Assembly (NCBI GenBank): GCA_020431405.1
Contig: JAGQIK010000362.1
Location: 9,858 to 73,857 of the forward strand
DNA length: 64,000 bases
Direction of reading: 5' to 3'
Source of the DNA: Myxococcales bacterium
GTDB lineage: Bacteria > Myxococcota_A > Polyangia > GCA-2747355
Shown piece after piece: positions 1,627-35,366 of the stretch. How positions within the stretch are numbered: position 1 is the first letter of the stretch; the number at the start of each line of letters is the position of its first letter. The notes under the pieces were generated by a model. It had not been told where the DNA came from. It was given only the letters and a program-made list of their open reading frames with translations, and ran no database searches. Position numbers and translations under genes: made by a program.

Positions 1627-1632
1627 CGGGCG

Positions 1633-2418: not shown

Positions 2419-2426
2419 TTGGCGCG

Positions 2427-4216
<1,790 letters not shown>

Positions 4217-4594
4217 TTCCTCGGTTTGACGCTAGCGCGCCTGAAACGTGGCTCTCGGGCCACGCGTGCTCCGCAGCTTGGCTGTGGTGAGCAGCACGCA
4301 AGTCGTGCTGCTGGGCGTCTTCGAGTCGAGCTGCAGGAGATGCCGAAGTGCTCGGCTCGAATTCGACCGCGTCAGCGGGCGAATCAATGTGAATCCGCTC
4401 GGGCGATGCTCAATGCCCAGAGAGCACTGTTCGCGAGGCTCCGCCCCTAACTCCCATCAGAGTGACCCATTGTCACAACCAACGTCAAGACCAGAACGTC
4501 CACACGGCGCTTTTGAGCGGCTCACAGCGTGCTCTGCTGTACAGTTTCAACGGGCTATGGAATAATGGCGCCAAACACCACTCAAGGGGTCTTA

Positions 4595-6649
<2,055 letters not shown>

Positions 6650-6653
6650 GACG

Positions 6654-7526
6654 CTACTTCACGTAGCGCAGCCGGTACTTCGCCGAGCTGCGCACCAGCT
6701 TCGAGCGCGTGGCCTTGAGGATTTGCTGCAAGGCCGCGCGCTGCCGCTTGTTCGAAAAGCCCTGCAGCCACGAGATGGCGTTGGAGCGCGTCGTCTCGCG
6801 GCCCTTGTTGCCGCTGATAAAGCGCACGATCTCCGGTATCACCGATGTCTCGCCGGCGCGGCCGAGCGTCGTGTAGGCGGCGAGACGTGTGTTGCCGTCG
6901 CGGCTGACGCGCGCGATGCGCTTGAGCTGCGCCACGACCGCCGCGCGCGGCGCTGCGCGCTGGCGCAGCGCATCGGCCAGCAGCCACGCTGTCTTGGCGC
7001 AGCGCTGGGTGCAGGCGGCCAGCTGCAGCATCAGCACGCGCGCCACGCGAGCCTCGTCCGAAGCGCCGCGCGCGCGTGCGAGCAGCGCGCGTGCCTTGCC
7101 GAGCAGCGCGCGGTCGAAGCTCGGCGGCGGGTCCTCGGGCGCGACGAGGCTCAGGCCGTTCGATCCGGCGCCCGCGTCGCGCAGCCACACCAAGCGCAGC
7201 GCGCCGACCGGCAGCGGTGCGAAGTGATAGCCGTTGAGCTGCGGCCCGCGCTGCGGCACCAAGGCGAAAGCGCGAAACGTGATCATCCGCCCGCGGCGGC
7301 TGCCTTTCACGGAGAGCTCGACGCGCGCGCGAACCTCGATGGGATAGCGTCCGCCCGCGGTCGTGGGCCCAGCACGTTTCTTGGCGCGGATCGCGACGAC
7401 GGCCACCACGCGCGCGCCGCGCGTCGAGCTGAGGTTGAGCCCCTCGTGAAGGCGGGCGTCGGCGCTGTGTGGGATCGCGACGGCGAGCGCCGCGACGACG
7501 ATGACGACGGGGATGTGACGGGACAT
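6654..7526 (-). CDS. Hypothetical secreted protein.
   Basis: 290-aa ORF with an N-terminal signal peptide (MSRHIPVVIVVAALAVAIPHSADA). No recognised catalytic motif. Confidence 0.4.
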   Translation of the reverse strand: MSRHIPVVIVVAALAVAIPHSADARLHEGLNLSSTRGARVVAVVAIRAKKRAGPTTAGGRYPIEVRARVELSVKGSRRGRMITFRAFALVPQRGPQLNGYHFAPLPVGALRLVWLRDAGAGSNGLSLVAPEDPPPSFDRALLGKARALLARARGASDEARVARVLMLQLAACTQRCAKTAWLLADALRQRAAPRAAVVAQLKRIARVSRDGNTRLAAYTTLGRAGETSVIPEIVRFISGNKGRETTRSNAISWLQGFSNKRQRAALQQILKATRSKLVRSSAKYRLRYVK

Positions 7527-7539
7527 ATTCTGCTGGGCG

Positions 7540-9651
7540 CTAGTTGATCGACTTGCAGGGCAGCGGCGCGAGGGCGGTCTCGTTGTTCATCTCGTCGCAC
7601 TCGTTGATCGCGCCGTTGCCGCTGCCGTCGTCGTCGACGACCACGACGAGATCGATGCTCTGATTGTTGCCCACGCCGGCCGGCCGCGGCACGTCGAAGG
7701 TGACCGTCTCGCTCTGGCCGGGATCGATGGTGGTGGTCGTCTGCACCGTCGCCAGCGCGGCGCGCGTGCCGCCGCTCTGAACGTGATAGAGCGTGACGTT
7801 GACGCCCGGCGTGACGCGCGCGGCGCCGCGGTTTTGCACGTCGAAGCTGACCGTCACGCGCGTGCCGCACTGCGACGCGCCAGCGCTGCCGCTCAGATCC
7901 GGTGCGTCGAACAGCCCGCCCGGCTGCACGTTCTGGCGGAAGTTGTTGAGGTGCGGGTTTGCCCAGTTGCGGTCGGGTTTGGCCGGGATCGTGCCATCCT
8001 CGTTGACGTTGGTGACGTGGTAGGTGTGCTGATTCCAGATGCGGCGCGTGCGAACCCAATTGTTCTTGCTGTCGCCGAAGACCTTGATGCCCGTCGACGA
8101 GGGTTTGCCGTCGGAGCAGGTCTTGAAGGCGTAGTTGTTGTTTGCGACGACGATCTCGGCGTGGTCGTCGTTGTCGACGTCGACGATCAGCGGATACTCG
8201 CGCAGCGTGCCTGACGTGTTGCAGGTCGACCACAGCACCTTGCCGGTCTTGCCCTCGTAGATGCGCAGCTCGTGCTCGTCGGAGTAGACCACCTCGGCGC
8301 TGCCGTCGCCTTCGAAGTCGAACACGGACGAGCCGGTCACGCGCGAGCTGAGGTCCTTGGTCGCCTTGAACCACTTCGGTGATCCGTCGTTTTCGAAGAC
8401 GACGTAGCCCCAGCCGCCGGCGGTGGCGATCTCGGGCTTACCGTCGCCGTCGAAGTCGGCGATGGTGGGCGGTCCGCCGCCGCAGTGATCGCACTTGTCG
8501 GTGCCGGTGGCCTGGCCCTGGTTGATGTCCACTGGTCCCCACACCGCGCTGCCGTCGCCGCGATGTGCATAAAGCGCGTGCTCCGAGTTGACCGCGACGA
8601 CGATCTCGGGTTTGCCGTCGCCGTCGAGGTCGGCGATGGCGGGGAAACCGTCGGCGTGGGCCGTGGTCTCCCACTGCACCTTGCCGTCGTGCGAGACGAT
8701 GGCGTTGCCGCCGACGATCTCGGGCATGCCGTCGTGGTCGACATCGGCCACGGCGGTGTAAACGCAGCCGGCGCGTGCGGTGAAGATCGTCGCGCCGGTG
8801 GCGCCGTCGAGCGCGCTGTAGCAGGTCACGACCTCGGGCTTGCCGTCGCCGTCGAGGTCGGCGATGGCGGGTGCCGTGCAGGCCAGGTCGCTCTGCCACT
8901 TGAACGTGCCGTCGTTTTCGAAGGCCAGCACGCCGCCGCCCGAGCGGCAGGCGACGATCTCGGGCTTGCCGTCGCCGTCGATGTCGCCGATGGCGATTTC
9001 GGTGCCGGGCGCCGTGCGATAGGCGGCGGCCGTGATCGAGAAGTGGTCGCCTTTGCCGTCGCCGCTGATCACGCGCAGCACGCCATCGGACTTGTAGTTG
9101 CCGCCGGCGAAGGTGTGAAAGACGATGTCCGGCACGTCGTTCTGGTCGATCTTGCCGTCGTTGTTGTCGTCGGTGAGGTTGGCCACCATCGGCGTCATCA
9201 TCACTTGGTTGTAGGTCGGCGCCGCGTTGCTGCCGGTCCAGGCCCATTTGAGCTTCGGCGCGAAGACGCCCGTAGGTGGCCGGTACTCGCAGACGTTGGC
9301 GCCGGGCACGCAGCGGCCGCGCGTGTCATCGCAGAAAAAGCCCGTCGGGCAGGGCCACAGCGGTCCGCACTGCGGGCCGAGGGTCTCGCACTTGTCGGCA
9401 ACGCAGGCCTGGTCGGCCGTGCAGCAGGTGTTGCCGCAGGTCGGTGGCCCGCCCTGGCAGCTGGCGCCGCCGCCGTCGCCCGCGCCGCCGTCGCCGACGG
9501 GGGTCAGGCCGTCTTGGAACCCGACGCCGCCGTCGCCGTTGCCGCCGCCATCGGGGCAGCTGGGGCCGCTGCAGGTGTTGACGGTTCCGCTGTCGCAGGC
9601 CGGCAGGCACAGCAGCGCAGCGAGGACGAAGCAACCCAGCGTAGCTCGCAT
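7540..9651 (-). CDS. FG-GAP repeat (integrin-alpha-like beta-propeller) lipoprotein with a Cys-rich N-terminal region.
   Basis: Lipobox LLCLPAC. Repeated IADLDGDGKPEIV / FDGDGKPE motifs. AGAGGA Shine-Dalgarno before the ATG at 9651. Confidence 0.6.
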   Translation of the reverse strand: MRATLGCFVLAALLCLPACDSGTVNTCSGPSCPDGGGNGDGGVGFQDGLTPVGDGGAGDGGGASCQGGPPTCGNTCCTADQACVADKCETLGPQCGPLWPCPTGFFCDDTRGRCVPGANVCEYRPPTGVFAPKLKWAWTGSNAAPTYNQVMMTPMVANLTDDNNDGKIDQNDVPDIVFHTFAGGNYKSDGVLRVISGDGKGDHFSITAAAYRTAPGTEIAIGDIDGDGKPEIVACRSGGGVLAFENDGTFKWQSDLACTAPAIADLDGDGKPEVVTCYSALDGATGATIFTARAGCVYTAVADVDHDGMPEIVGGNAIVSHDGKVQWETTAHADGFPAIADLDGDGKPEIVVAVNSEHALYAHRGDGSAVWGPVDINQGQATGTDKCDHCGGGPPTIADFDGDGKPEIATAGGWGYVVFENDGSPKWFKATKDLSSRVTGSSVFDFEGDGSAEVVYSDEHELRIYEGKTGKVLWSTCNTSGTLREYPLIVDVDNDDHAEIVVANNNYAFKTCSDGKPSSTGIKVFGDSKNNWVRTRRIWNQHTYHVTNVNEDGTIPAKPDRNWANPHLNNFRQNVQPGGLFDAPDLSGSAGASQCGTRVTVSFDVQNRGAARVTPGVNVTLYHVQSGGTRAALATVQTTTTIDPGQSETVTFDVPRPAGVGNNQSIDLVVVVDDDGSGNGAINECDEMNNETALAPLPCKSIN

Positions 9652-9727
9652 GGCGGTCCTCTTTGCACAGCTGGGGCCAGTCAAGCCAGCCTTAAATGCG
9701 TGAAATCGCGCAGGCCGGTCGGGTCAG

Positions 9728-10942
9728 CTATCCCCCCTGGGGCTTGGACAACGCACCCCAGAGGATCTCGTAGAGCGCTGGATTCGTTTCGTGAAGCAGC
9801 CGCGGGTCGCCGAGCTTGTGCACGCTCGTCGGGTAGATGACCTCGCAGTCGACCTCGCGCAGGTAGTAGTGCGGGCGCCGAATGTCGGGTCGCGCGGTCC
9901 ACGTCGTCTCGTCGTTGGGGTTGTAGTAGACGCTGGCCACGCGGATGCGCTCGTGATCGAGGTTTCGGCGCAGCAGCTCCTTGAGGTGCGTGATGACGTT
10001 GTTGACCAGCCGCCCCGCGCGAAACGTCGTGTCGATGATCAGGATGTTGTCGTCGCGGTTGATGCGCTCTTCGAGGTAGTGCACGCCGACGATCTCGTCT
10101 TGGTAGCTCACGCGCGTCGAGAGCGTGTTGAGCGAGATGTGGTCGGGCGCCGGCCGCGTCGAGCCGCGCTTCTTCTGCGTGTACTTGTAGACCTCGTGCA
10201 CCGGCAGGCCCGCCACCACGCCGCCGGGCCACAGCGCGATGAGGAAGTCGGGGCGCCAGTCGTCGTGGGCGATGTTGACGCCGAGACGAATGCAGTCGTG
10301 CAGCAGCTCGGTGGCTGTGGGCGCGAAGTAGCCGCCGGAACGCTCGAGCTTGGTCGGCGCCGTCGGGCCGGCGCGCAGCAGCTGCCAGATCGTCTCGCTC
10401 TTGGCCTTGATCAGCGCGTCGTCGGGGTCGTCGGCGCTGACCATGTCGGCGAGCTCGTGCGGGTAGTCGATCCAGATCTCGGCGTCGAGCTCGTGCACGG
10501 AGATGATCGGCAGCTCGTCGTACTTCATCGCGCCCGGCTTGTGGTGCACGGTGGCGACGCGAATGTCGCGCGGCGCGTTGGCGCGCGCTCGCTCGCGCAG
10601 CACCTCGACGATGCGCTTGATCGTGTTGCCCGACTCGTAGACGTCGTCGATGATCAGCAGCCCATCTTCGGGGCAGATCACGCGCGCGAGATGCTCGAGG
10701 TTCTTGACGGTGACCTGCCCTTGCTGGCCCATGCCCGTGTAGGACGCCGTAGCGATGGTGGTGTGGCTGATGTGCACCCCGCGGCTGCGGAAGTAGGCGT
10801 CGACGCCGAGACCCACCGGCGTGCCGCCGCGCCAGATCGAGATCGCGTGCTTGGGACGGAACCCCTGCTCGTAGATGCGCTGGCCGAGGCGGAAGGTGTC
10901 GAGGAGAAACTCGTCAGGATCGATGTGCATCATCTTGGGCAT
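9728..10942 (-). CDS. Protein with two tandem phosphoribosyltransferase (PRTase type I) domains.
   Basis: Two PRPP-binding loops, LLIIDDVYESGNTIKR and ILIIDTTFRAGRLVNN. About 404 aa in total. Confidence 0.55.
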   Translation of the reverse strand: MPKMMHIDPDEFLLDTFRLGQRIYEQGFRPKHAISIWRGGTPVGLGVDAYFRSRGVHISHTTIATASYTGMGQQGQVTVKNLEHLARVICPEDGLLIIDDVYESGNTIKRIVEVLRERARANAPRDIRVATVHHKPGAMKYDELPIISVHELDAEIWIDYPHELADMVSADDPDDALIKAKSETIWQLLRAGPTAPTKLERSGGYFAPTATELLHDCIRLGVNIAHDDWRPDFLIALWPGGVVAGLPVHEVYKYTQKKRGSTRPAPDHISLNTLSTRVSYQDEIVGVHYLEERINRDDNILIIDTTFRAGRLVNNVITHLKELLRRNLDHERIRVASVYYNPNDETTWTARPDIRRPHYYLREVDCEVIYPTSVHKLGDPRLLHETNPALYEILWGALSKPQGG

Positions 10943-11113
10943 AGGGTCGGGAGCCTATCACCCCTCAGATTTCCGACGAGCGCGCGCTGCCGCCGCGCGG
11001 AATTTTGACCTGCCGCCCCTCGAAATCACAGCGTTTGTCTGTGCCAGCGCGAAGGTACGGCGCTTGCTTTTTCAACAGCGATGGCACCTTACGAACGCTC
11101 AAGGGGGAAGGCG

Positions 11114-14100
11114 ATGCGCCGGCATAAAGCGAGACGTTATTACCTGCCAGTAGTAGCAGGCCTGATCTTCACGCTCGTCGGGCTCGGCTGCGGCGGAAAC
11201 ATCGGCGACAACGCGCTGTCGCCCGGCCAGACCGACTTCGTCAACAACGAGCCAGGCAACGGCTACGGCAGCCCTGGCGCCTTCAACGGCGCCGAAGATC
11301 GCGGCGCCGGCGGCGCGATGGCCCCCAGCGGCCAGGCCGACTCCAACGCCAAAGGCGCCGAGCCACCCAACGGTCGCACCGGTGACGTCGAAGAAGCTGA
11401 CATCTACCGCATCGACAACAACCGCCTCTTCTACCTCAACACCTACCGCGGCTTCGTCGTCTACGACCTCAACGACCCCAAGAATCCGCGCCGCGTCGGG
11501 CGTCTGCCGGTCTTCGGCTACCCCGTCGAGATGTTCGTCAAGGGCGACACGATCTACGCGCTGCTGCGCGACGCGCTCTACCTCACGCAAGACAAGGGCA
11601 AGCTCAAGTTCGAGCGCCACAACGTCTCGCAGCTCGTCACCATCGACGTCTCCGATCTCTCGAAGCCGCGCGTGCTGAAGAAGGTCGACATCATCGGCCA
11701 GCTGCGCGAAGGCGTCTCGCGCAAGATCGAAGACACCATCTACGTCGTCAGCTACGTGCCGCAGAGCTACTACTGGGGCTGGGGCTACAACCGCAACCAG
11801 GACCAGAAAGAGCAGGCGCACGTCTACTCGTTCAACGTCGCCGACGCCAAGAATCCAGCGCTCGTCGACAAGCTCAAGCTCTTCGAAGGCGGCAGCATCC
11901 AGCTGCAGGACAAGACCACCGGCAGCTACTACACGCGCTCGTTCAACGGCGTCTCGATCTCGGCGACGTCCAACGCGCTGATGGTCGTCGAGAACTGGTA
12001 CAGCTACGGTCGCCAGAGCAGCGGCGGCAACGGCTGCTCGAGCTATCAGAGCAACCAGGACGCCACCGTCTCGATCGTCAACATCAGCGATCCGAGCGGC
12101 AAGATCTCGGTCCACACCAAGTTCCAGACCAAAGGCCACCTCACCGACCAGTTCAAGCAGACGTATATCTACGACGACGCCACCAAGACCGGCACCTACT
12201 ACGGCATCTTCGCGCGCCGCGAGTGGGGCGGATCCAACTGCAACTGGCAGTCGCAGATCCAGAACACCATCGAGAGCTGGGACGTCAGCGACGGCAAGAA
12301 CCCGCAGCGCCTCTCCGAGCTCGCCTTCGGCAAGCCCAACGAGACGGTGCGCGGCTCGACCTTCGATCCCGAGCGCAAGGTCGCCTTCGCCATCACCGCG
12401 CAGCAGATCGATCCGCTCTACGTCATCAGCTTCGCCGACCGCACCAAGCTCAAGGTGCTCTCCGAGATCGACGGCCTCTCGGGTGACATGAATGTCTTCC
12501 GCTTCATCGACAATAAGAAGTTCCTGATGGGCATCGGTCGCGACACCACCGACACCTGCAGCGGCTTCCAGAAGGACGGCGAGCGCAGGGGCACCAACGT
12601 CGCGGTCAGCATCATCGACGTGCGCGACCTCAACAACATCAAGCTCGTGCAGCGCCAGTGTGTCGCCGTGCAGAACGCGAGCTGGGTCAGCTCGGGCGTC
12701 AACAACAACCTCGATCAGGCGCACAAGATGATCGGCATGTTCTCCGACGGCCGCGTCAACGCCGTCACCGTGCCGGTCTACTACTACGTCAAGAACGAGG
12801 ACAACCCGAGCTGGTGGTACTACCGCTACGAGACCGCCATCGGCGTGATGACCTGGGACACGAGCAAATACGATCCCAACAAGAGCCACACCGAGCAGAC
12901 CGTGCTGCAGAACTACGGCACGATCATCCACCACAACGGCCAGGTGCGTCGCTCGATCGTCTTCACCCACAAGGGCCAGAGCGACCGCCGTATGGTGGTC
13001 AACCTCTCCGACACGCACATCTCCATCGCCGACATCGAAGACCTCGATCACCCGCAGGTGCTCTCCACCGTCGAGCTGGCGCCGTACTACTCGCAGCTCT
13101 ACAAGTTCGGCCAGTACCTCGTCGAGCAGGTCACCTCCGGCGCCTACGGCTACGAGGCGCGCACCGAGTTCCGCGTCAAGCGCGCGGGCGCCGACCTCGA
13201 GTCGCGCTCGGTGGTGGCGCGCTTCTCGGTCGGCCAGGTGCAGCGCGCGATCAAGCACGGCGACAACCTGGTGCTCTTCCGCACGGTGCAGGAGAACAAC
13301 AACCAGCCCTACTACTACCGCACCAGCACCGAGGTGCTCGTCTACGATCTGAGCGACCCGGCGGCGCCGCGCCGCGCCGGCTCGGTCAAGCTCACCGGCT
13401 CGATCCTGCCTTACTACTACTACTGGTGCGGCGTGGGCGGCTTCTGGGGCGGCTATTGGTTCGACGACAACAGCCGCAACTGGGTCTCGACCAAGACCGG
13501 CATCACGTTCCTGTCGTACTTCTACGACTACCAGAAGGGCACGTCGTCACGGCGGCTGTACTTCCTCGACCTGCAGAACAACCAGGCGCCGGCCGTCACC
13601 AACTATGCGCTGACCACGGCGCAGAGCTGGTCGTTCCTCGGCCTCGCGCCCGACCCGGTGGAGCCCACCGCGTTCTACCTGACCTACCGCACGCACATCG
13701 GTCAGAACAAGATCGGCAACACCACGTTCAGCGTCTTCAAGTACTACGCGCAGCGCTGGGGACGTCGCGGCGGCAAGTGGACCGGTCTCGAGTCGATCAA
13801 CCTGCCGGGCCGCCTGATCCGCACCTGGGCCACCAAGCAGGGACAGCGCATGTTCTTGGCACACGACTACACCTATCGTCCCTACGTCAACCCCAACAAC
13901 CCGCAGTACACCTCCTGGCAGCCCGACTTCCGTCTGAGCCTGCTGCGCGAGACGCAGCTGCTCGGCCAGCCTGTCGCCGAGCTGCTCGACTGGCACAACT
14001 TCGCCGACTTCTATCTCAAGGATCTGGTCATCGACGGCGACAAGATCTTCGTCAACGCGCACCGCAGCTACAGCTACGCGCAGAAGAACAACCTGCAGTG

Positions 14101-14419
14101 GTACGACCTGTCGGACCATCTCGTGTTTTTCGACACGAGCCTCGGCAAGCTCGCGAAGAAGTACAGCGAGGCCACGGGCACCTACAACGTGCGCCTGATG
14201 GGCACCTACCGCAATCGGCTTTTCCTCAACCTGCCTGGTGACGGCGTGTTGGTGGTCGACGCGTCTAACCCGTCGGTGCCCGTGGGCAAGCAGTTCGTGC
14301 GCACGCTCGGCTGGGCCTCGCACATCGAGTTTGCCGGCGACACGGCGTTCGTCGCCTCGGGCAACTTCGGCATTTACGAGCTGCAGCTCGATTCACCGCT
14401 GGTGATCGCGAATAACTAG
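11114..14419 (+). CDS. Large beta-propeller-domain lipoprotein (1.1 kDa-scale secreted repeat protein).
   Basis: Lipobox LVGLGCGG. DIYRIDNNRLFYLNTYRGFVVYDLNDPKNPRRVG-type LVIVD/beta-propeller repeats. GGGGGAAGG Shine-Dalgarno before the ATG at 11114. Confidence 0.55.
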   Translation: MRRHKARRYYLPVVAGLIFTLVGLGCGGNIGDNALSPGQTDFVNNEPGNGYGSPGAFNGAEDRGAGGAMAPSGQADSNAKGAEPPNGRTGDVEEADIYRIDNNRLFYLNTYRGFVVYDLNDPKNPRRVGRLPVFGYPVEMFVKGDTIYALLRDALYLTQDKGKLKFERHNVSQLVTIDVSDLSKPRVLKKVDIIGQLREGVSRKIEDTIYVVSYVPQSYYWGWGYNRNQDQKEQAHVYSFNVADAKNPALVDKLKLFEGGSIQLQDKTTGSYYTRSFNGVSISATSNALMVVENWYSYGRQSSGGNGCSSYQSNQDATVSIVNISDPSGKISVHTKFQTKGHLTDQFKQTYIYDDATKTGTYYGIFARREWGGSNCNWQSQIQNTIESWDVSDGKNPQRLSELAFGKPNETVRGSTFDPERKVAFAITAQQIDPLYVISFADRTKLKVLSEIDGLSGDMNVFRFIDNKKFLMGIGRDTTDTCSGFQKDGERRGTNVAVSIIDVRDLNNIKLVQRQCVAVQNASWVSSGVNNNLDQAHKMIGMFSDGRVNAVTVPVYYYVKNEDNPSWWYYRYETAIGVMTWDTSKYDPNKSHTEQTVLQNYGTIIHHNGQVRRSIVFTHKGQSDRRMVVNLSDTHISIADIEDLDHPQVLSTVELAPYYSQLYKFGQYLVEQVTSGAYGYEARTEFRVKRAGADLESRSVVARFSVGQVQRAIKHGDNLVLFRTVQENNNQPYYYRTSTEVLVYDLSDPAAPRRAGSVKLTGSILPYYYYWCGVGGFWGGYWFDDNSRNWVSTKTGITFLSYFYDYQKGTSSRRLYFLDLQNNQAPAVTNYALTTAQSWSFLGLAPDPVEPTAFYLTYRTHIGQNKIGNTTFSVFKYYAQRWGRRGGKWTGLESINLPGRLIRTWATKQGQRMFLAHDYTYRPYVNPNNPQYTSWQPDFRLSLLRETQLLGQPVAELLDWHNFADFYLKDLVIDGDKIFVNAHRSYSYAQKNNLQWYDLSDHLVFFDTSLGKLAKKYSEATGTYNVRLMGTYRNRLFLNLPGDGVLVVDASNPSVPVGKQFVRTLGWASHIEFAGDTAFVASGNFGIYELQLDSPLVIANN

Positions 14420-14500
14420 CACGCACGTCCTGCTAGCGAACAACTGACGCCCGCCACGTTTGCTCGGGGAAGACGTGGCGGGCGTCGTCTATGTGAAGCG

Positions 14501-15490
14501 ATGCTTCTGCGCTCATGTTTGGTGTTGGTCGTCTTGCTCGCGGCCTGTGATTCGCGGCCGCCGCTCTCCGCTGATGGCGGCGCGTCCGCCGACGCGAACG
14601 CTTCTTCTGACGGGACCACCGCGAGCCCGACCAAGCGCCCCGAGCTCGAGCGCATGATCGACGCCTGCGTCTACGCCGTCAGCTGCGCGAGCGTCGGCGA
14701 GTGGGGACAGCCGCTGACGATGCAGAGCTGTCTTGAAGAGATGGCCTCGGCGCGGATGCTGCCGCAGGGATACGGCGTGCCGGACGGCGAGGTGATCGAA
14801 CGCTGGTACCGCTGCGCCGAGACGGCCAAGCGCTGTGCCGACTTTCACGCCTGCTACGGCGGCACGTGGCCGGGCACGACGCTCTGTCGCGAGGGCGGCA
14901 GCTGTCAGGACAACAAGCTGACGCTCGGCTTCGGCCAGACGGATGCGCCGTATCTCGACTGCGGACGCTTCGGGGCGACCTGCGTCGACCTGCCCACCGG
15001 CGCGCAGCGCGGCTGCTGCGTCCGCAGCGCCGAGCAGTGCCCGGCCACTTGGGACGTCAAGTGCGACGGCACGCTCAGCGAGACGTGCTTTCTCGGCATC
15101 AACCTGCGCTACGACTGCGCGCGCGTGGGCGGCCGCTGCAATCCGCAGGCGAGCGGGCGCCACGATCTGTGCAGCCTGCCCGGCGAGACGTGCGACGACG
15201 GGACCTTCGCGCGGCGCTGCGACGGCAGCGTGATCGCCCAGTGCGTGGCGAACACGATCTTGCGCATCGACTGCAAGGACACGCTGACGCAGACGGCCTG
15301 CCAGGCGTCGACCTATCCGGCCTGCGCGTTTGCCGGCAGCGAGTGCAAGCGCGGCTCGGCCGACAGCTGCGACGACGACCACACGATCCGATTCTGTCTC
15401 GACGGGCGCCGCACGACGCGCAACTGCCGAGCGCTCGGCTTTTCGCGCTGCCTCGCCACCGACGACGGCCACGCGCAGTGCGTGCCGTAA
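14501..15490 (+). CDS. Cys-rich secreted lipoprotein (hypothetical).
   Basis: Lipobox VVLLAAC. More than 40 Cys in 329 aa. Confidence 0.45.
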   Translation: MLLRSCLVLVVLLAACDSRPPLSADGGASADANASSDGTTASPTKRPELERMIDACVYAVSCASVGEWGQPLTMQSCLEEMASARMLPQGYGVPDGEVIERWYRCAETAKRCADFHACYGGTWPGTTLCREGGSCQDNKLTLGFGQTDAPYLDCGRFGATCVDLPTGAQRGCCVRSAEQCPATWDVKCDGTLSETCFLGINLRYDCARVGGRCNPQASGRHDLCSLPGETCDDGTFARRCDGSVIAQCVANTILRIDCKDTLTQTACQASTYPACAFAGSECKRGSADSCDDDHTIRFCLDGRRTTRNCRALGFSRCLATDDGHAQCVP

Positions 15491-15506: not shown

Positions 15507-17612
15507 CTAGTCGCCGTGGGCAACGAGCTGAGCTTTGGCGGCGGCCACCACGTTGTCTAGAGTGAAGCCGAACTTCTTGTGCAGCTCCTCGACGGGAGCG
15601 GACGCGCCGAACAGCTCGACACCCATCGTCGCGCCTGTCTTTCCGACGTACTTGGCCCAGCCAAAGGTCGATGACAGCTCCACGGAAACCCGCGCGTGTA
15701 GCTTTGGCGGCAGTACGTGGTCGATGTAGCCCTGATCTTGGTCTTCGAACAGCTCCCAGCAGGGCATGCTCACCACGCGGGCACGAATGCCATCCGCCTC
15801 GAGCTGCTCGTAGGCTGCGATGCACAGCGGCACCTCACTGCCCGTCGCTAGCAGGAGAACCTGCGGCTCGCCGCCGTCGGCATCCGCGAGGATGTACGCG
15901 CCGCGTTGCGCGCCTGTAGCTGGCGCGTACTTGCTGCGGTCGATGGTCGGAACGTTCTGTCGCGTGAGGATCAGCGCCACGGGGCGATGCCGCAGCTGCA
16001 TGATGACTTTCCACATCTCGACAACTTCGTTCGCGTCCCCTGGCCGAATGGTCAGCAGGTGCGGGAGGGCGCGCAATGAAGCAAGGTGCTCGACCGGCTG
16101 ATGGGTTGGTCCGTCCTCGCCGACGCTTATGGAGTCATGCGTCAGGACGTAAACAACTGGGAGCTCCATCATCGCGCTCAAGCGGATCGATGGGCGGGCG
16201 TAGTCGGAGAACACGAGGTACGTCGAGCCGTACGAACGTAGCTTGCAGAGTGACATGCCGTTGATGATCGAGCCCATGGCATGCTCGCGTACGCCGAAGT
16301 GGATGTTGTTTCCGCTGCCGTCGGACTGAAAGTCCGTGTATGCGTCGAGACGCGTCTGCGTCGACGACGCGAGGTCGGCGGAGCCACCCACGATCCAGGG
16401 GACGTTCCTCGAGAGCGCGTTGAGCACTTTGCCCGAAGCCTTGCGCAACGCGATGCCCTCCTGCGATGCCTCGAACGTGGGCAGATCTTTGTCCCAGTCG
16501 TCGGGCAGCTCGCGATGCTGCATCTTGTAGAGTCGGTCGTAGAGATCGGGAAAGGCGAGGCGGTAGCGCTCGACTCGCTCGTGCCACTGTTGGTAGAGGG
16601 CACGTCCGCGCTCACCCATGCCATCGGCAAAATGCTCGACGACACTGCTGGGAACGAAGAATTTGGCTTCTTCGGGCCAGCCGTAGTTCCGCTTGGTGAG
16701 CCGAGCTTCCTCTTCACCGAGCGGCGAGCCATGGGCCGCGGCGCTGTCTTGCTTGTTCGGTGAGCCCCAACCGATATGGCTGTCGACGATGATCAGCGTG
16801 GGACGCGTTGCTTCTGCCTTGAAGGCACGGAACGCTCTCGTCAGCTGTTCGATGTCGTTGGCGTCGTCGACCGACTGCACGTGCCAGCCTAGCGCGGCAA
16901 AACGCCCGACTACGTTTTCGCTAAACGACAGATCGGTGGGACCATCGATGGTGATCCTGTTGTTGTCGTAGATCCAGCACAGGTGGGAGAGGCCCAGATG
17001 GCCAGCGAGGGACGCCGCCTCTTGGGCAACGCCCTCCATCAGACAGCCGTCGCCGCACAGCGCGTAGACGTCAAAATCGATCAGCTCGAAGCTAGGGCGA
17101 TTGAAGTTCTTCGCCATCCAACGTTCTGCGATCGCCATGCCGACGCTGGTGGCCACGCCCTGACCCAACGGCCCCGTGGTGCACTCGACGCCCGACGTCC
17201 ACATGTGTTCTGGATGCCCAGCGCAACGAGAGCTGAGCTGGCGAAAGCTCCTGATGTCATCGAGCCGTACCGAGAGTCGACCTGGGGCCTCGTACTTTGG
17301 GTTCTTGGCCTTGACCTGCGCGAGGTGCAGCACCGCGTAGAGCAGCATCGATGCGTGGCCAATGGACAAGACAAACCGATCGCGATTGGTCCAAACCGGA
17401 TGATCAGGGTCGTAGCGTAGGAACCGCTGCCACAGCGTGTAGGCAACGGGTGCGAGCCCCATGACGGTGCCCGGATGTCCCGAGCTCGCGGCCTCGACAG
17501 CATCGATGCCCAGCGTGCGAATGGTCGTGACAGCCAGCTGCTCGATGGACAGGCGTTGCAGCAGCTCGTCTTCCAGTCGTCTCGCATCTGTCGGCTTCAA
17601 GACATCTTCCAT
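15507..17612 (-). CDS. tkt: Transketolase.
   Basis: 701 aa with a thiamine-diphosphate transketolase signature (…[18 protein letters not shown]…, …[18 protein letters not shown]…). Confidence 0.85.
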
Positions 17613-17839
17613 CGTCGAGCTGCAGCCTGCGGGATTTTTCGCGTCGTCACAGTTGGTTAGGCAGCACGGAATGCGCCCCCGAAATCTTGCGACGAGGATT
17701 TGGTTGACTCGGACACAAAAAGTACCTCACAATTAAAAAACGCGCACAAATATGAGCGAGGTGTCGAAAGCCATCTCGCTCTTGAGTTCCGTCGCTAAGG
17801 CTTTGGCTATGCGATCGAACCCGATACAAGGATCGACAA

Positions 17840-17965
17840 ATGGCGAAGAAGACCAAGAAGACGAAGAAAAAAGTCAGTCTCAAAGTCAAAGAGCTAGAGA
17901 ACGTTCGTACGCCTTTGAAGGCGCGCCAACGTTCGCGCGTGGGTGCCTGGAGCACCAGCTGGTAG
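17840..17965 (+). CDS. Small Lys-rich peptide, copy 1 of 3 (41 aa): MAKKTKKTKKKVSLKVKELENVRTPLKARQRSRVGAWSTSW.
   Basis: Not in the ORF track (below 60 aa). Conserved N-terminus and C-terminus shared with copies 2 and 3. Followed by a hairpin plus T-run terminator. The track ORF 17752..17970 is the wrong frame. Confidence 0.45.
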   Translation: MAKKTKKTKKKVSLKVKELENVRTPLKARQRSRVGAWSTSW

Positions 17966-17993
17966 TCTGAAGAAGAGGATTGCGATGTGCGCG

Positions 17994-18031
17994 TGGCCGG
18001 CCCGCAGTTTTGCGGTGCCGGCCTTTTCTTT
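17994..18031 (+). terminator. Rho-independent terminator after peptide copy 1.
   Basis: GGCCGGCCCGCA-gttt-TGCGGTGCCGGCC followed by TTTTCTTT. Confidence 0.5.
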
Positions 18032-18212
18032 CCAGCTTGATCTTTCTCTGTGATGAAAAAAATCGTTGATCAGCTTACGGGAACCTGGCAACTTGATCGT
18101 ACGCGTACTGTTTCATCAAAAATGGTGGCGATGTACCGAAAGGTATGTCGCCGATAGCACTTCGATCGCTACGGCATCGCGCTATGTGGTCGGACTGCAG
18201 GAGAAGAAGAAC

Positions 18213-18362
18213 ATGTCGAAGAAGACGAAGAAAACGAAGAAGAAGGTCAGTCTCAAGGTCAAAGAGCTCGATAACCTCCGGGCCCCAGCTCCGATGCTGA
18301 AGGCGAGAGCCTCCAAGGCCATCAACCGTAGTCGCGTCGGCGCCTGGAGCACCAGCTGGTAG
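18213..18362 (+). CDS. Small Lys-rich peptide, copy 2 (49 aa): MSKKTKKTKKKVSLKVKELDNLRAPAPMLKARASKAINRSRVGAWSTSW.
   Basis: Internal ATG of the track ORF 18066..18362. Copies 2 and 3 share an upstream element of about 150 bp and the termini shared by all three copies. Terminator follows. Confidence 0.5.
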   Translation: MSKKTKKTKKKVSLKVKELDNLRAPAPMLKARASKAINRSRVGAWSTSW

Positions 18363-18389
18363 TAGGCTAGTGTGTTGCGATGTACGCGT

Positions 18390-18424
18390 GGCCGGCCTGC
18401 GTAGCGCAGGCCGGTCTTTTTTTG
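18390..18424 (+). terminator. Rho-independent terminator after peptide copy 2.
   Basis: GGCCGGCCTGCG-tag-CGCAGGCCGG (perfect 10-bp stem) followed by TTTTTTT. Confidence 0.6.
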
Positions 18425-18589
18425 CCAAGTGTCAAGAAAACTGTTGATCAACTTACGAGACGTTGGCACGATGATCATACGCGTACAATTGAGACTGTGG
18501 CGATGTGCCGAAAGGGACGACGCTTGACAGCATTTCGATCGCTACGGCAGCACCAACTGCTATGCGTACGAATTGCGGGAGTAACAGAA

Positions 18590-18733
18590 ATGTCGAAGAA
18601 GACGAAGAAGACGAAGAAGAAGGTCAGCCTCAAGGTCAAAGAGCTCGACAACCTTCGCTCACCGGCTGCGATCGCGAAAGCGAAAGCAGGCATGAGACGT
18701 AGTCGGGTCGGCGCCTGGAGCACCAGCTGGTAA
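18590..18733 (+). CDS. Small Lys-rich peptide, copy 3 (47 aa): MSKKTKKTKKKVSLKVKELDNLRSPAAIAKAKAGMRRSRVGAWSTSW.
   Basis: Internal ATG of the track ORF 18380..18733. Conserved termini. Terminator follows. Confidence 0.5.
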   Translation: MSKKTKKTKKKVSLKVKELDNLRSPAAIAKAKAGMRRSRVGAWSTSW

Positions 18734-18758
18734 GTTAGCGCCAGCTGAGTGTACGCGT

Positions 18759-18798
18759 GGCCGGTCTGCGAAAGCAGGCCGGCCATTTCTTTTTTCAC
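18759..18798 (+). terminator. Rho-independent terminator after peptide copy 3.
   Basis: GGCCGGTCTGCG-aaa-GCAGGCCGGCC followed by ATTTCTTTTTT. Confidence 0.5.
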
Positions 18799-18831
18799 GC
18801 CTCTTCTTTTCTCACGGAGCTTGCTTCGCGT

Positions 18832-19899
18832 TCATCGCTCGAGACGTTCTGAAACCAGCTTCCTGCACTCACCCGCGATGGCGATTGTCTCTTCGAGCTT
18901 GGCTTTCGACGGACTACTGTCGTTCGGCTCGTAGAGCGCTTGATGCAAGACGTCGAGCTGGGCTTGCATCTCGTCGAGCATCGGCGCGTTGAGCGCGAGG
19001 TGACACCGCTCTTTGACCTGCTGGATCTCCTCGCTGGTCAACGCGGCGGGGACACGCGGCAGCTTGCTGGGCTCCTGCGGCGAGACGGGCTCGTCGCGCG
19101 AATAGCCCAATAGCTCGAGCAATGGGCCTGCCATGGTCGAGATGCCGTGCTTGATGTCGTCAGGCAAGGCTGCTTGCCAACCGCCCGCGCGCCCTTTGCG
19201 AACGTGTCCCGGCGCGGTCTTCTTCATCGACGACACATGAAGCTCACTCGCCATCGCCGCTTTCACGTCGCCCGAGAGCGACACGCCGAGGTAGTCGAGC
19301 AACCGGTCGAGCTCGTTGTCGAAGTCGTGCCGCAGACGCTCGTAGCAGATGATGTGGATATCATGCTGGTCCCTGTGAGCGAGGTAGCCCAAGACGTGGT
19401 TGATCCAGTCCTTAGTCCGCGCCATCCAGCTGTCACGATACTGCTCTTCGATCGACCCCAAGGGGGCGAGGGTGCTGTAGCGCTGTATGTAGGGCATACG
19501 CTGGAAGTGCGCGAACGAGACAACCACATCGCGAACATCGCGCACGATATAGACCGTCTTGTCGAACCGCTCGAGTAGCCGTCCACTCCAAGGGTCCTGC
19601 CACGGCGAGTGGCTCCAGCCATGAGTTGTCTTGCTCGCGAAGTCATCGAGGTCTTCGATGGGCCAGTGGAATATCGCCGGTATCCAGAACCAAATACCGC
19701 GGCGCACGACGCTGATGCAGTCGAGATCTGCTTGGTTTGGAAAGGAGAGATCAGGCCAGGTCTTGAACAGCGGGTAGATCGGCAGCGTGTGGACGTAGCG
19801 CGTGTTGGGCCAACCCGCGCGCTCGACGATCGCGTTGAGCGTCTGATACAGCCAGTAGTTGCCACTCTTCTCGACGCCGATCTGGAGGATCTTGGGCAT
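18832..19899 (-). CDS. Sulfotransferase-family protein (PAPS-dependent). It is a paralogue of the upstream gene.
   Basis: 5'-PSB-like loop IGVEKSGNYWL and 3'-PB motif YIVRDVRDVVVSF. About 355 aa. ATG 4 nt after the upstream gene's stop. Confidence 0.6.
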   Translation of the reverse strand: MPKILQIGVEKSGNYWLYQTLNAIVERAGWPNTRYVHTLPIYPLFKTWPDLSFPNQADLDCISVVRRGIWFWIPAIFHWPIEDLDDFASKTTHGWSHSPWQDPWSGRLLERFDKTVYIVRDVRDVVVSFAHFQRMPYIQRYSTLAPLGSIEEQYRDSWMARTKDWINHVLGYLAHRDQHDIHIICYERLRHDFDNELDRLLDYLGVSLSGDVKAAMASELHVSSMKKTAPGHVRKGRAGGWQAALPDDIKHGISTMAGPLLELLGYSRDEPVSPQEPSKLPRVPAALTSEEIQQVKERCHLALNAPMLDEMQAQLDVLHQALYEPNDSSPSKAKLEETIAIAGECRKLVSERLER

Positions 19900-19903
19900 G
19901 CTA

Positions 19904-20983
19904 TTACTCGACGCCTTCTTCTAGGTCCGATTCAGCTCGAGTGAGCTCCGCAAACGCTTCGAGGCTCGCGACCAGCTTGTCCACCTCGCGCCCTAACACG
20001 CCGCCACCTCTGATCGCAGGAATGTTCGCGAACCACCGCGCCTGCTCGACGGTCTGTGATATGGCGTAGTCGATCGGGACCTCGAGCGCCTCTTCGGTGA
20101 TCTCGGCCAACGCCTCATTGTCTATCTGGTCTGGAACACGCGGCAGCGATGACGGATCGCTCCAGTCCCGCGGAGCGTCATCTAGCGGATAGCCCAGCAG
20201 CTCCAGCAACGGCTCTGCCATATCGGTAATGTCGGCCTTCATCGTGTCCGACAAGCTCTCGCTCCAACCACCGGACTTCCCTGAACGCACATGCGCCGGT
20301 GACGCTGCTTTCATCGTCCTAACAGATACGTCGTCTGCTATTTGGTCGATCTGTGCATCTGACAGAGAGATCTCGAGATAGTCTAGGAGCCTTCGGTATT
20401 CGCTTTGGAAGTCGTACCGAAGGCGCTCGTAGCAGACAAAGTGGATATTGAAACGCTCGCGCTGAGCCAGGTGCTGCGAGACATGTGTTATCCAGTACTG
20501 CGTCCGCAGCAGCCACGCCTTATCGAGGTAGCTGATCGGGTCCTCACTGAGATCGACCATGCTGTAGCGTTGGACAAAGGGCATGAACTGAAAGTGGCAG
20601 AACGACAGCAGTACGTCGCGAGGATCGCGGATGATATAGACGACCTTGTCGAAGCGTTCGAACACCGCCGCGCTTGTTGGTCCAAACCAGTTCGAGTGGG
20701 TCCAAGCGTGGGTCGTCTTGGCCGCAAAGTCATCGAGGTCTTCTATCGGCCAAAAGAAGATCAGCGGAATGTAGTAGAAGACCTTATCGGGCGTGATGTT
20801 AAGAAAGTCGATATCCGGCTGATCGGGAAACGACAGGTCAGGCCACGTCTGGTGTAGTGGATATATCGGGTGGCTACGAGCGTAGCGGCGCCAGGGCAGC
20901 CCGGCAGCCTTGGCGGTCTTGTCGAGGTTGTTGTAGAGCCAGTAGTTACCGCTCTTCTCGACGCCGATCTGCAGGATCTTCAA
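19904..20983 (-). CDS. Sulfotransferase-family protein (PAPS-dependent).
   Basis: IGVEKSGNYWL and YIIRDPRDVLLSFCHF motifs. TTG start. Translationally coupled to the downstream paralogue. Confidence 0.6.
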   Translation of the reverse strand: MKILQIGVEKSGNYWLYNNLDKTAKAAGLPWRRYARSHPIYPLHQTWPDLSFPDQPDIDFLNITPDKVFYYIPLIFFWPIEDLDDFAAKTTHAWTHSNWFGPTSAAVFERFDKVVYIIRDPRDVLLSFCHFQFMPFVQRYSMVDLSEDPISYLDKAWLLRTQYWITHVSQHLAQRERFNIHFVCYERLRYDFQSEYRRLLDYLEISLSDAQIDQIADDVSVRTMKAASPAHVRSGKSGGWSESLSDTMKADITDMAEPLLELLGYPLDDAPRDWSDPSSLPRVPDQIDNEALAEITEEALEVPIDYAISQTVEQARWFANIPAIRGGGVLGREVDKLVASLEAFAELTRAESDLEEGVE

Positions 20984-27152: not shown

Positions 27153-28694
27153 TCAGTAGCTTAACAGCAGGTAGCCCTTCTCCTCGAACCAGCCAAGCTC
27201 GCCCATCTCGAGCTCGTACAGGTACTCGTTGCCGGTCATGTTGCGCTCGACGTTGCGTCGCATGTCCGGCACCAGATCGCGCGCGAGGTAGCGCAGCTGG
27301 TAGAAGCGCTTGACCATGTCAGCGGGCGTGCTGTTCGTGTTGATGTGGGTGAGGTATTCGCGCGGCTTCGCGGCGAACTCCTCCTCGGTGACATATCGCT
27401 TGCTCAGCTGGCTCCAGCGCTGCCAGCCCTCGAGCGTATTCACAAGCACGTCGATGTCGTAGGCGCTCGGGTCGTCCGCAAACTTCGTACCAGGCGTCAC
27501 CATCAGATTCTCGATCCAGTAGATCTGACCGCCGAGCGCGACGACCTCGCGCATGGCTTCGTACGTCTCGCGAAACTCGCTGGCCGTCTCGCCAGGAAGG
27601 TTCGCGATCCAAGCCGTCAGCACCATGCCGCCCATGTCGCTGATCAGTCGCACGGCGTCCAAGATCTGCTCGCGCGACGAGCCGCGTCCAGTTCGCTTGA
27701 GCACCGACTTGGAGGCGCTCTCGCAACCCATCGTGAAGCGGACGAAGCCTCCATCGACCAGATTGCGTACGAGCTCGGGTCGCTTGAACAACACCGGGTG
27801 CGTCTCGAGGCGCACCGTGATGTCGAGGCCTGATGCGGCGAGCGCTTCGGCGAGCTGGCCGACGTAGCGCGGGTAGACGAACTCGCTCTCGCCGAGGAAG
27901 ATCTCTTTGAAGCCCAGTTTCTCGTAGGTGCGGATCTGCTCGATGACCCTGTCTACCGAGACGGTAGAGAGAGGTCGACGAAAGAACGACTGCCGATTGG
28001 CGACGCAGTAGCCGCATTGAAAAGGACAGAGCCCTCGCGCGATGTTGATGAACGCGCCGTAGCCCCACGTCACGTCGTCGAACGGTGGCGCGTCGGCGTT
28101 AACGATGGGCAGCTCCTCCATCGGCACGAGCGATCCGTCAGCCGGTTCGATGTAGCGTGTTCCCTGCGGGGTGCGGTGCCAGGCGCCCGCGACGGTCGTG
28201 TGGTCCTTGCCCGCGAGGGCAGCGCGGGTCAGCTCGAGCGCGGGCACCTCGCCCTCGCCCTGCACGAGCCCGTTGAGCGACGGATAGGTGGCGAGGAACT
28301 TCTCGGCGAAGCACGCACCGAAGATCCCGCCCAGATAGATCAGCGAGTCTGGATGTAGCCGGCGGTACCGCTCGGCGATCTGCGGAGCGCCGTTGCTATA
28401 GAGGTGCCAGTGCGCTTGGATGCCGACCCACGCAGCGGGATGGGCGGCGAGAATCGCGTCCAGGTCCCACTCGAGGTCGTTGTCCTCGACGAACAGGCGC
28501 TCCGAGTCCATGTGCAGCAGCTTCACGCGCAGGCCGTTGTCGTGAAGAAACTGCGCGATCGACAGCATCCCTATCGGTGCGTTCGACTCGAGGGTGAGGC
28601 CCGAGTCTCGAGGTGTTCCATCGGCCTCGTAACCGTGATGGGGTGCGATGAGCAGAGCGTCGTACTCGCCGCCGCGTCCATGAAATGCGACCAC
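27153..28694 (-). CDS. B12-binding (class B) radical SAM enzyme, a putative C-methyltransferase or similar maturase.
   Basis: CPFQCGYC (CxxxCxxC). A …FTMGCESASKSVLKR… radical SAM core. A Rossmann-like N-terminal domain (LTVVAFHGRGGEYDALLIAP…). Start taken as the GTG at 28694, which is preceded by AAGGA. The track ORF extends to 28898, overlapping the YcaO gene. Confidence 0.65.
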   Translation of the reverse strand: MVAFHGRGGEYDALLIAPHHGYEADGTPRDSGLTLESNAPIGMLSIAQFLHDNGLRVKLLHMDSERLFVEDNDLEWDLDAILAAHPAAWVGIQAHWHLYSNGAPQIAERYRRLHPDSLIYLGGIFGACFAEKFLATYPSLNGLVQGEGEVPALELTRAALAGKDHTTVAGAWHRTPQGTRYIEPADGSLVPMEELPIVNADAPPFDDVTWGYGAFINIARGLCPFQCGYCVANRQSFFRRPLSTVSVDRVIEQIRTYEKLGFKEIFLGESEFVYPRYVGQLAEALAASGLDITVRLETHPVLFKRPELVRNLVDGGFVRFTMGCESASKSVLKRTGRGSSREQILDAVRLISDMGGMVLTAWIANLPGETASEFRETYEAMREVVALGGQIYWIENLMVTPGTKFADDPSAYDIDVLVNTLEGWQRWSQLSKRYVTEEEFAAKPREYLTHINTNSTPADMVKRFYQLRYLARDLVPDMRRNVERNMTGNEYLYELEMGELGWFEEKGYLLLSY

Positions 28695-28717
28695 CGTCAG
28701 TCCTTTTGATTCGTCAT

Positions 28718-35149: not shown

Positions 35150-35366
35150 GTTGATCCTCAGGTCGTGTGTGATCACCCATAGCAGCGCCTTAGGGTGGCA
35201 CAGAGCTCCGACTAGCTTTCGCTGAGGCGGTGCATCCCGAAGTCGTGTTCGAAGTACGGATCAGACTAGCATGGAAATACAGCCCGTAAAGGGGCAATCG
35301 CAGAAAAATTTGTCTGCTAGATTACGGACGATAGGCGGCGAGAAAGGAAGTCGCGCGCCTGGCGCA

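Follow-up and report, generated by a model that had tools for sequence, protein, structure and literature searches.

Analysis of a 64,000-nucleotide stretch of DNA from a Myxococcales bacterium (the window; contig JAGQIK010000362.1 of the metagenome-assembled genome [MAG] GCA_020431405.1, forward-strand positions 9,858 to 73,857, numbered here from its first nucleotide) revealed a cassette of three small tandem genes, c1 to c3. The cassette occupies the largest intergenic gap of the window (1219 bp, at 17.6 to 18.8 kb), which is flanked by minus-strand genes for a transketolase (15507 to 17612) and a sulfotransferase (18832 to 19899). It is composed of three units of about 375 bp each on the plus strand. 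In each unit, a promoter-like site precedes a structured leader (about 100 nt), a Shine-Dalgarno sequence, an open reading frame (ORF) of 41 to 49 amino acids, and an intrinsic terminator, in this order (Table 1). A tblastn search of the window revealed no fourth copy.

A previous reading made from the letters alone (the sequence-only reading) had described three ORFs with conserved ends and a variable middle, and all three were recovered as quoted. The peptides have the N-terminal sequence M[AS]KKTKKTKKKVSLKVKEL[ED]N[VL]R and the C-terminal sequence RSRVGAWSTSW in common, while the middle segments differ (TPLKARQ in c1, APAPMLKARASKAIN and SPAAIAKAKAGMR in the other two). The proposed homology of the units beyond the ORFs holds as well. 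Whole units align, with 81 to 94% identity in the N- and C-terminal coding parts and 52 to 78% in the 3' untranslated region plus terminator. The upstream element ascribed to copies 2 and 3 does join these two (76% identity over 150 bp), and a diverged version, 57 to 58% identical to both, is also present in unit 1. The GC content is 53.6% for positions 17640 to 18800, compared to 64.8% for the window, which is roughly as had been estimated by eye (about 50% against 65 to 70%). This low value is largely as expected for a mostly noncoding 1.2-kb stretch with Lys-rich codons and therefore is not by itself a sign of foreign origin. Among the called genes, the GC content at third codon positions is 0.88 to 0.93 at positions 814 to 15490, except at 3443 to 4216 (0.83), and falls to 0.72 to 0.85 from the transketolase gene onward (15507 to 64000).

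Codon usage at the conserved ends was compared pairwise among the three copies over 23 N-terminal and 12 C-terminal codons. In the plus-strand frame, the comparison revealed 29 synonymous and 6 nonsynonymous codon differences, nearly all of them at third positions, and the nonsynonymous ones were conservative (A/S, E/D, and V/L). The C-terminal codons contributed 10 synonymous differences and no nonsynonymous difference, including one Ser codon exchanged between TCG and AGT. Counted as events, the differences amount to about 16 synonymous and 3 conservative nonsynonymous changes, where about 80% nonsynonymous changes would be expected at random (P of about 1e-7). The middle segments of c2 and c3 differ by eight nonsynonymous and three synonymous codons and by in-frame insertions or deletions. 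The ATG, the Shine-Dalgarno sequence (7 to 9 nt before the ATG), and the stop codon, which directly follows the last Trp codon, are kept in all three copies. The excess of synonymous changes at the ends, together with the in-frame changes in the middle, shows that the peptides are translated and selected. These results indicate that c1 to c3 are real genes and that both ends of the encoded peptides are under purifying selection. The noncoding flanks have diverged to 57 to 58% identity, which is near saturation, and with the synonymous divergence this argues for an old triplication. The ends were therefore kept by selection and not by recent duplication or gene conversion.

In the public annotation, c2 is a 58-amino-acid protein with a GTG start (18186 to 18362) that begins 9 codons before the conserved ATG. 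The in-frame sequence 5' of the ATG is not conserved between the copies, so the annotated start lies too early. c1 apparently is unannotated in the public record, because only two proteins were retrieved by the word-indexed search.

The codon comparison also bears on the idea that antisense ORFs of the minus strand (17647 to 17955, 18182 to 18478, and 18475 to 18798), which would encode hydrophobic ...LTLRLTFFFVFFVFF... peptides, are the true genes. The minus-strand frame that shares its wobble positions with c1 to c3 is open and scores 23 synonymous versus 10 nonsynonymous differences, and its hydrophobic product would resemble a small membrane toxin. However, when all six frames were compared, the ratios were better for the plus-strand frame (29:6 in total and 10:0 over the C-terminal codons). 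The antisense frames lack a conserved start, stop, or Shine-Dalgarno sequence and continue across the terminator hairpins, they are unrelated to each other beyond the shared region, and the promoter-like sites and T-tailed terminators all face the plus strand. We consider antisense genes highly improbable. The antisense ORFs mirror the run of Lys codons in the wobble-sharing frame, which mimics coding conservation.

The deduced peptides are hydrophilic and extremely basic, with an isoelectric point of 11.6 to 11.7, 14 to 15 Lys and Arg residues versus 2 Asp and Glu residues, and a grand average of hydropathy (GRAVY) of -0.8 to -1.1. After a K-rich stretch comes VSLKVKEL[DE]N[LV]R, in which the hydrophobic residues form an alternating pattern. 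The segment ...LKVKEL[DE]N[LV]R[AST]P has a helix pattern like that of double-glycine leaders but lacks the Gly-Gly. Each peptide contains eight or nine Ser and Thr residues and no Cys; S40 and S46-T47-S48 (c2 numbering) are invariant, and the invariant tail RSRVGAWSTSW holds the only clustered Ser/Thr residues. An AlphaFold2 model contained short helices at a predicted local distance difference test (pLDDT) score of 60, a low-confidence result that is compatible with disorder and otherwise uninformative.

Alignment of the upstream regions revealed that GTTGA is invariant across the three units. With GTTGA(C/T) read as the -35 element, followed by a spacer of 17 to 18 nt and a CAnnnT -10 element, the predicted transcription start is the first base of a conserved 5' box in all units. 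Sigma-54 and extracytoplasmic function (ECF)-type promoter readings of the same element, made by eye, were rejected because they are not conserved among the units. At the other end, hairpin terminators with a T run were scored for units 2 and 3, and the terminator of unit 1 was seen in the fold. Folding of the leaders gave two hairpins that all units have in common; the loop of hairpin 1 is an invariant GAAA, and four base pairs are kept through double changes. A search of Rfam 15 revealed no family for the upstream element (best scores of 12 to 19 bits versus thresholds of 40 to 398; E of at least 1.8 in a scan at E≤10).

The 5' box, ACGCG[T/C]AC(A), lies 100 to 112 nt 5' of each ATG and is the exact reverse complement of a 3' box, (T)GT[A/G]CGCGT, that sits 18 to 22 nt past each stop codon, directly against the terminator stem. 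The sequence-only reading had listed an upstream "tacgcgtac" and a preterminator "(a)tgt.cgcgt" (as part of G(A)TGT.CGCGTGGCCGG, which was indeed found before each terminator). Both are conserved, but they are not two separate boxes, since they are reverse complements and are predicted to pair. In unit 1, a T-to-C change in the 5' box is matched by an A-to-G change in the 3' box, which makes one compensatory change. Each of the three whole units folded with a closing helix of 8 to 9 bp, both in the minimum free energy structure and in the centroid structure (z scores of -2.9, -4.1, and -4.3). A formal covariation control for this helix, limited to three sequences, did not reach significance (one double change, 26 of 27 cells paired, 173 of 500 shuffles); the closing helix is therefore predicted, and a single event supports it. 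Taken together, the predicted structures suggest three monocistronic mRNAs of about 290 to 320 nt, each with its 5' end paired to the foot of its own terminator.

Table 1. Features of the cassette and of the neighboring genes, by position in the window
Feature	Positions	Strand	Basis or remarks
ORF c1, 41 aa, MAKKTKKTKKKVSLKVKELENVRTPLKARQRSRVGAWSTSW	17840-17965	+	AAGGA Shine-Dalgarno 7 nt upstream
ORF c2, 49 aa, MSKKTKKTKKKVSLKVKELDNLRAPAPMLKARASKAINRSRVGAWSTSW, KC503_25085	18213-18362	+	AGGAG 9 nt upstream
ORF c3, 47 aa, MSKKTKKTKKKVSLKVKELDNLRSPAAIAKAKAGMRRSRVGAWSTSW, KC503_25090	18590-18733	+	GGGAG 8 nt upstream
Unit 1 promoter-like site, TTGACT, 18-nt spacer, CACAAT	17704-17733	+	Consensus scan; putative function
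Unit 1 5' box ACGCGCACA, predicted +1, 7 nt after -10	17740-17748	+	Perfect complement of 17986-17994
Unit 1 leader hairpin 1, GAAA loop	17754-17781	+	Fold
Unit 1 leader hairpin 2	17786-17820	+	Fold
Unit 1 3' box TGTGCGCGT, adjoining terminator stem	17986-17994	+	Complement of 5' box
Unit 1 intrinsic terminator, GC-rich hairpin and TTTTCTTT	17995-18033	+	Sequence, whole-unit fold
Unit 2 promoter-like site, TTGATC, 17-nt spacer, CAACTT	18066-18094	+	By eye, aligned to unit 1; weak -10; putative
Unit 2 5' box ACGCGTAC	18101-18108	+	Complementarity, fold
Unit 2 leader hairpin 1, 12 bp in whole-unit fold, GAAA loop	18126-18153	+	Fold
Unit 2 leader hairpin 2	18157-18198	+	Fold
Unit 2 3' box GTACGCGT	18382-18389	+	Complementarity, fold
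Unit 2 intrinsic terminator, 12-bp stem, T7	18390-18423	+	Scored, fold
Unit 3 promoter-like site, TTGATC, 17-nt spacer, CACGAT	18444-18472	+	By eye; putative
Unit 3 5' box ACGCGTACA	18479-18487	+	Complementarity, fold
Unit 3 leader hairpin 1, GAAA loop, weaker stem	18496-18529	+	Fold
Unit 3 leader hairpin 2	18530-18576	+	Fold
Unit 3 3' box TGTACGCGT	18750-18758	+	Complementarity, fold
Unit 3 intrinsic terminator	18759-18797	+	Scored, fold
B12-binding radical SAM protein	27153-28898	-	Candidate modifying enzyme; putative peptide link
Fused leader-peptide-binding (TIGR03882-like) and SagD-family YcaO cyclodehydratase, 710 aa as annotated	28718-30850	-	
Radical SAM protein, 871 aa	30868-33483	-	Candidate modifying enzyme (putative)
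HlyD adaptor	43074-44945	-	
M16 peptidase	44938-47289	-	
Fusion of PqqD-like RRE, daptide/epipeptide-type M50 HExxH intramembrane protease, and HlyD, 868 aa	47308-49914	-	

The RNA architecture recalls type I toxin-antitoxin loci, in which the mRNAs of toxic peptides would be silenced by the 5'-3' helix and controlled by antisense RNA. The 5'-3' closing helix and the tandem units resemble the hok and ldr loci of Escherichia coli. As in ldr/rdl and hok/sok, units of a few hundred base pairs are repeated in tandem between genes, and each unit combines a small ORF with a long, structured 5' untranslated region and with 5'-3' pairing (here predicted, in three of three folds). In contrast to the membrane-spanning products of those loci, c1 to c3 are strongly hydrophilic and polycationic and have no transmembrane segment or hydrophobic stretch, and no antisense RNA gene is evident. 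Minus-strand promoter sequences are not conserved, with one weak match in unit 3 only, and hairpin 1 would act as a minus-strand terminator in unit 2 only. The spacers of 20 to 32 nt leave no room for a separate antitoxin gene. A toxin-antitoxin function is quite unlikely on these grounds.

The conserved leader hairpins, with their four base pairs kept through double changes, and the low whole-unit z scores (-2.9 to -4.3) would also fit a functional RNA, namely a small RNA, a cis-regulatory leader, or a Trp-sensing attenuator, with the ORF being incidental or serving as the sensor. In each ORF, two of the last five codons before the stop encode Trp, and a terminator comes next. Against this, the substitutions show selection on the amino acid sequence, the Rfam scan gave no match even at E≤10, and there is no plus-strand gene downstream to attenuate, the next gene (18832 to 19899) being convergent. 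An RNA as the product of the cassette is very unlikely.

Searches for relatives of the peptides were negative throughout. No match was obtained in Pfam, NCBIfam (E≤10), or PADLOC; the PHROGs search gave one negligible match (c1, E = 0.23, unknown function), and a profile search of the PDB gave just a designed coil (E = 0.25). A word-indexed search of about 5.8 billion proteins retrieved only the MAG's own two annotated copies, KC503_25085 and KC503_25090, which share a single 90-kb contig. A HMMER profile search of 1.84 billion cluster representatives retrieved c3 itself and one further protein, P0003. P0003 was rejected as a relative. It consists of nine identical 73-amino-acid repeats, and because a single repeat scores only 21.9 bits, the hit is a chance match multiplied by repetition. 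P0003 has 662 amino acids and no internal stop and could stem from a satellite repeat or from concatenated or rolling-circle-like assembly. A scan of species-representative genomes with the N-terminal motif revealed no relatives, and tblastn against plasmids gave no match. The back-translated pattern VGAW[ST]T[ST]W-stop matched 5 times in genomes, 10 times in Joint Genome Institute (JGI) metagenomes, and never in viral contigs; all matches were judged to be chance because none had a basic N-terminus or RSR. c1 to c3 are therefore orphan peptides that have no relatives in the searched databases.

The peptides could be stand-alone, unmodified polycationic proteins that have no relation to the YcaO cluster described below and would bind a polyanion such as nucleic acid, ribosome, polyphosphate, sulfated glycan, or membrane. 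The K-rich N-terminus would then provide charge and the Trp tail stacking or anchoring, and the mRNA structure would serve stable expression or autoregulation. The isoelectric point, the surplus of 14 to 15 basic over 2 acidic residues, and the negative GRAVY values fit this explanation, as do the predicted disorder with short helices and the selection on both ends. Furthermore, each gene is an autonomous transcription unit, the immediate neighbors do not encode enzymes of pathways to peptides that are made by ribosomes and modified posttranslationally (RiPPs), and the conserved leader hairpin with its GNRA loop could bind the basic peptide itself. However, neither the protein searches nor the DNA motif scans yielded a homolog. 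A housekeeping role is therefore unlikely, since a binder of nucleic acid or ribosomes normally is conserved at least across a family. Stand-alone proteins would also leave a nearby cyclodehydratase cluster that lacks a substrate unexplained. We regard this explanation, the chief competitor of the one favored below, as possible but doubtful.

The cyclodehydratase cluster is located 8.4 to 14.8 kb from the cassette, on the opposite strand. Within a minus-strand operon, two genes for radical S-adenosylmethionine (SAM) proteins flank a YcaO gene whose product fuses a leader-peptide-binding domain to a cyclodehydratase. The YcaO protein matched TIGR03604 (E = 1.6e-48) and TIGR03882 (E = 3.9e-8), and its best PDB matches were TruD, MusD, and LynD. 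The word-indexed search for YcaO homologs at E≤1e-20 retrieved only the protein itself. Both radical SAM proteins had weak matches to RiPP C-methyltransferase models. The 871-amino-acid protein showed weak matches to class-B (B12) radical SAM families, and Pfam shows no B12-binding domain in it. About eight genes lie between the cluster and the cassette, including genes for two sulfotransferases, an M3-like HExxH protein (21.1 to 22.6 kb), three lipoproteins, and a TonB-dependent receptor. A second module, which encodes a fusion of a RiPP recognition element (RRE) with an M50 protease together with an M16 peptidase and an HlyD adaptor, lies 25 to 31 kb from the cassette. The sequence-only reading had raised a RiPP option without drawing a link to enzymes; RiPP-type enzymes are present in the window, at 27.1 to 33.5 and 43 to 50 kb.

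The gaps in and around the YcaO operon are too small for a precursor gene, and apart from the cassette the 64-kb window has no convincing intergenic locus of small ORFs. The sole other conceivable precursor candidate near the cluster is a Ser/Thr/Cys-rich ORF of 35 amino acids (35190 to 35297, minus strand) with a TTG start, located upstream of the lipoprotein-radical SAM-YcaO operon in a gap of 190 bp. This ORF lacks a Shine-Dalgarno sequence, its third-position GC content is 57% versus 72 to 93% for the called genes of the window, and it probably is noncoding promoter DNA.

The two adjoining sulfotransferases (18832 to 20983, minus strand) are paralogous, 52% identical enzymes of the 3'-phosphoadenosine-5'-phosphosulfate (PAPS) type, with no glycosyltransferase gene nearby. 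Their closest homologs (33 to 41% identity) are encoded beside GT2 glycosyltransferases, cytidylyltransferases, and Wzm/Wzt exporters. A role as peptide-tailoring enzymes was considered and dropped because these homologs sit in polysaccharide or O-antigen-like clusters and not in peptide clusters. Genes of the shikimate pathway, for dehydroquinase/shikimate dehydrogenase, a 5-enolpyruvylshikimate-3-phosphate (EPSP) synthase-shikimate kinase fusion, and chorismate synthase, lie at 58590 to 63235 on the plus strand. Together with the transketolase gene, they place aromatic amino acid supply genes on both sides of a locus for Trp-ending peptides, which possibly is a coincidence.

We tentatively interpret the cassette, with less than even confidence, as three paralogous, independently transcribed RiPP precursor genes. 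This interpretation agrees with the nearby genes for a rare enzyme class, with the lack of another candidate substrate, and with the tandem paralogy, the predicted disorder, and the orphan status of the peptides. A YcaO/radical SAM set needs a ribosomal peptide substrate, which supports a link to the cassette, and the peptides contain Ser and Thr, residues on which a YcaO cyclodehydratase can act.

If so, transcription would begin at the first base of the 5' box, which would pair with the 3' box and close the mRNA end to end around the two leader hairpins. Such pairing should protect both ends and would favor a stable, abundant message. The conserved N-terminal part of the disordered polycationic peptide would be the leader or recognition sequence; its VSLKVKEL strand could add to the sheet of a recognition element, and the binding partner of this leader would be the recognition domain in the fused TruD/LynD-like cyclodehydratase (28.7 to 30.9 kb). 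The variable middle would be a spacer, and the tail RSRVGAWSTSW would be the core, cyclodehydrated to (methyl)oxazolines. The two neighboring B12/radical-SAM-type enzymes could modify the core further, for example by C-methylation. Leader removal and export may involve the M3-like HExxH protein or the RRE-M50/M16/HlyD module, which has a weak link to the peptides; roles of M50 and M16 proteases in RiPP maturation are documented (PMC10885120). Three genes with one invariant tail would then yield one product at high dosage.

Comparison with characterized systems revealed partial likeness to several RiPP classes. Precursors of the cyanobactin type (PatE/TruE/MusE) and of the TOMM/LAP type likewise are short peptides whose N-terminal part is conserved and whose conserved tail contains Ser/Thr, and a fused leader-binding and YcaO enzyme, whose nearest solved relatives are TruD, MusD, and LynD, is present in the neighborhood. 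The layout of c1 to c3 resembles the cyanobactin arrangement, in which conserved flanks surround a variable segment. In contrast to those systems, the peptides lack Cys and an RSII/RSIII motif and match no precursor hidden Markov model; their leader is polylysine rich, and the enzymes are encoded on the other strand, at a distance of 8 to 15 kb. No subtilisin-type or PatA/PatG-type protease was found in the scanned ORFs of the window.

The sequence-only reading had called the layout the reverse of the usual one in RiPP precursors. The conserved ends and variable middle stand, but "reverse" is overstated. Precursors of the pyrroloquinoline quinone (PQQ)/mycofactocin type, pearlin scaffolds, and cyanobactin precursors ordinarily have a conserved core at the C-terminus or conserved recognition sequences at its flanks. 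PQQ, mycofactocin, and pearlin precursors resemble c1 to c3 in their conserved N-terminal part, tolerant linker, and invariant tail with an aromatic end, and the window encodes an RRE-fused M50 protease, but this module lies 25 to 31 kb away, and no LanB-like PEARL, PqqE/MftC-type SPASM, or related enzyme was detected among the ORFs scanned. In pearlin pathways, M50 enzymes release C-terminal products (PMC10885120). Double-glycine (PCAT-type) peptides, in which a GG, GA, or GS cleavage motif follows an LSxxELxxIxGG-type leader, differ from c1 to c3, which lack the Gly-Gly, and the ORFs scanned include no C39 peptidase or ABC transporter.

The core may alternatively lie at the N-terminus and be followed by a C-terminal follower, as in bottromycin. 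The bottromycin pathway combines YcaO enzymes with class-B radical SAM methyltransferases and a precursor that has a C-terminal follower. The cassette resembles it in the combination of YcaO with B12/radical-SAM-type proteins and in a conserved C-terminal segment that could be a follower. It differs in that there is no sequence similarity, that the YcaO enzyme is fused to a leader-binding domain and does not stand alone, and that other bottromycin enzymes were not found. A conserved follower or recognition tail of a RiPP precursor and a family of small basic proteins, the two options offered by the sequence-only reading, are the two explanations that still stand.

Several points weigh against RiPP precursors. 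The link to the enzymes is one of proximity alone; the nearest radical SAM gene lies 8.4 kb away on the other strand, and the roughly eight intervening genes look unrelated. A search for the conserved boxes of the cassette elsewhere in the window was negative, giving no indication of coregulation. No homolog of the peptides was found outside the MAG, hence there is no comparative support, and no known precursor family (NHLP, Nif11, TOMM, and others) was matched in Pfam/NCBIfam at E≤10. The peptides have no Cys. An extremely basic leader would be unusual for a RiPP, and a separate promoter and terminator for each precursor would be less common than cotranscription. The true precursor of the cluster could also be encoded outside the window.

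A more specific version of the precursor interpretation is rather unlikely as a whole. In it, c1 to c3 would belong to a new family of RiPP precursors in which a polylysine leader and a tolerant spacer precede an invariant AWSTSW-type core, and modification of the core by the TruD-like heterocyclase and the two B12/radical-SAM-type enzymes would yield a Trp-flanked, C-methylated oxazoline peptide. Alternatively, in a pearlin-like manner, a modified C-terminal fragment would be freed by the RRE-fused M50 protease. In both cases the precursors would be expressed from monocistronic, end-paired mRNAs.

c1 to c3 represent either a lineage-specific small basic protein or, within a known kind of system (azoline/radical-SAM RiPPs), a new family of precursors. 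If they are stand-alone polycationic peptides, the locus would be a lineage-specific curiosity of modest interest. If the peptides are the substrates of the cyclodehydratase and the radical SAM enzymes, they would form a precursor family without relatives in current databases and would suggest that an uncultured myxobacterium makes a new azoline natural product that contains Trp but no Cys. The end-paired mRNA would illustrate compactly how a gene for a small peptide can ensure that its message is stable.

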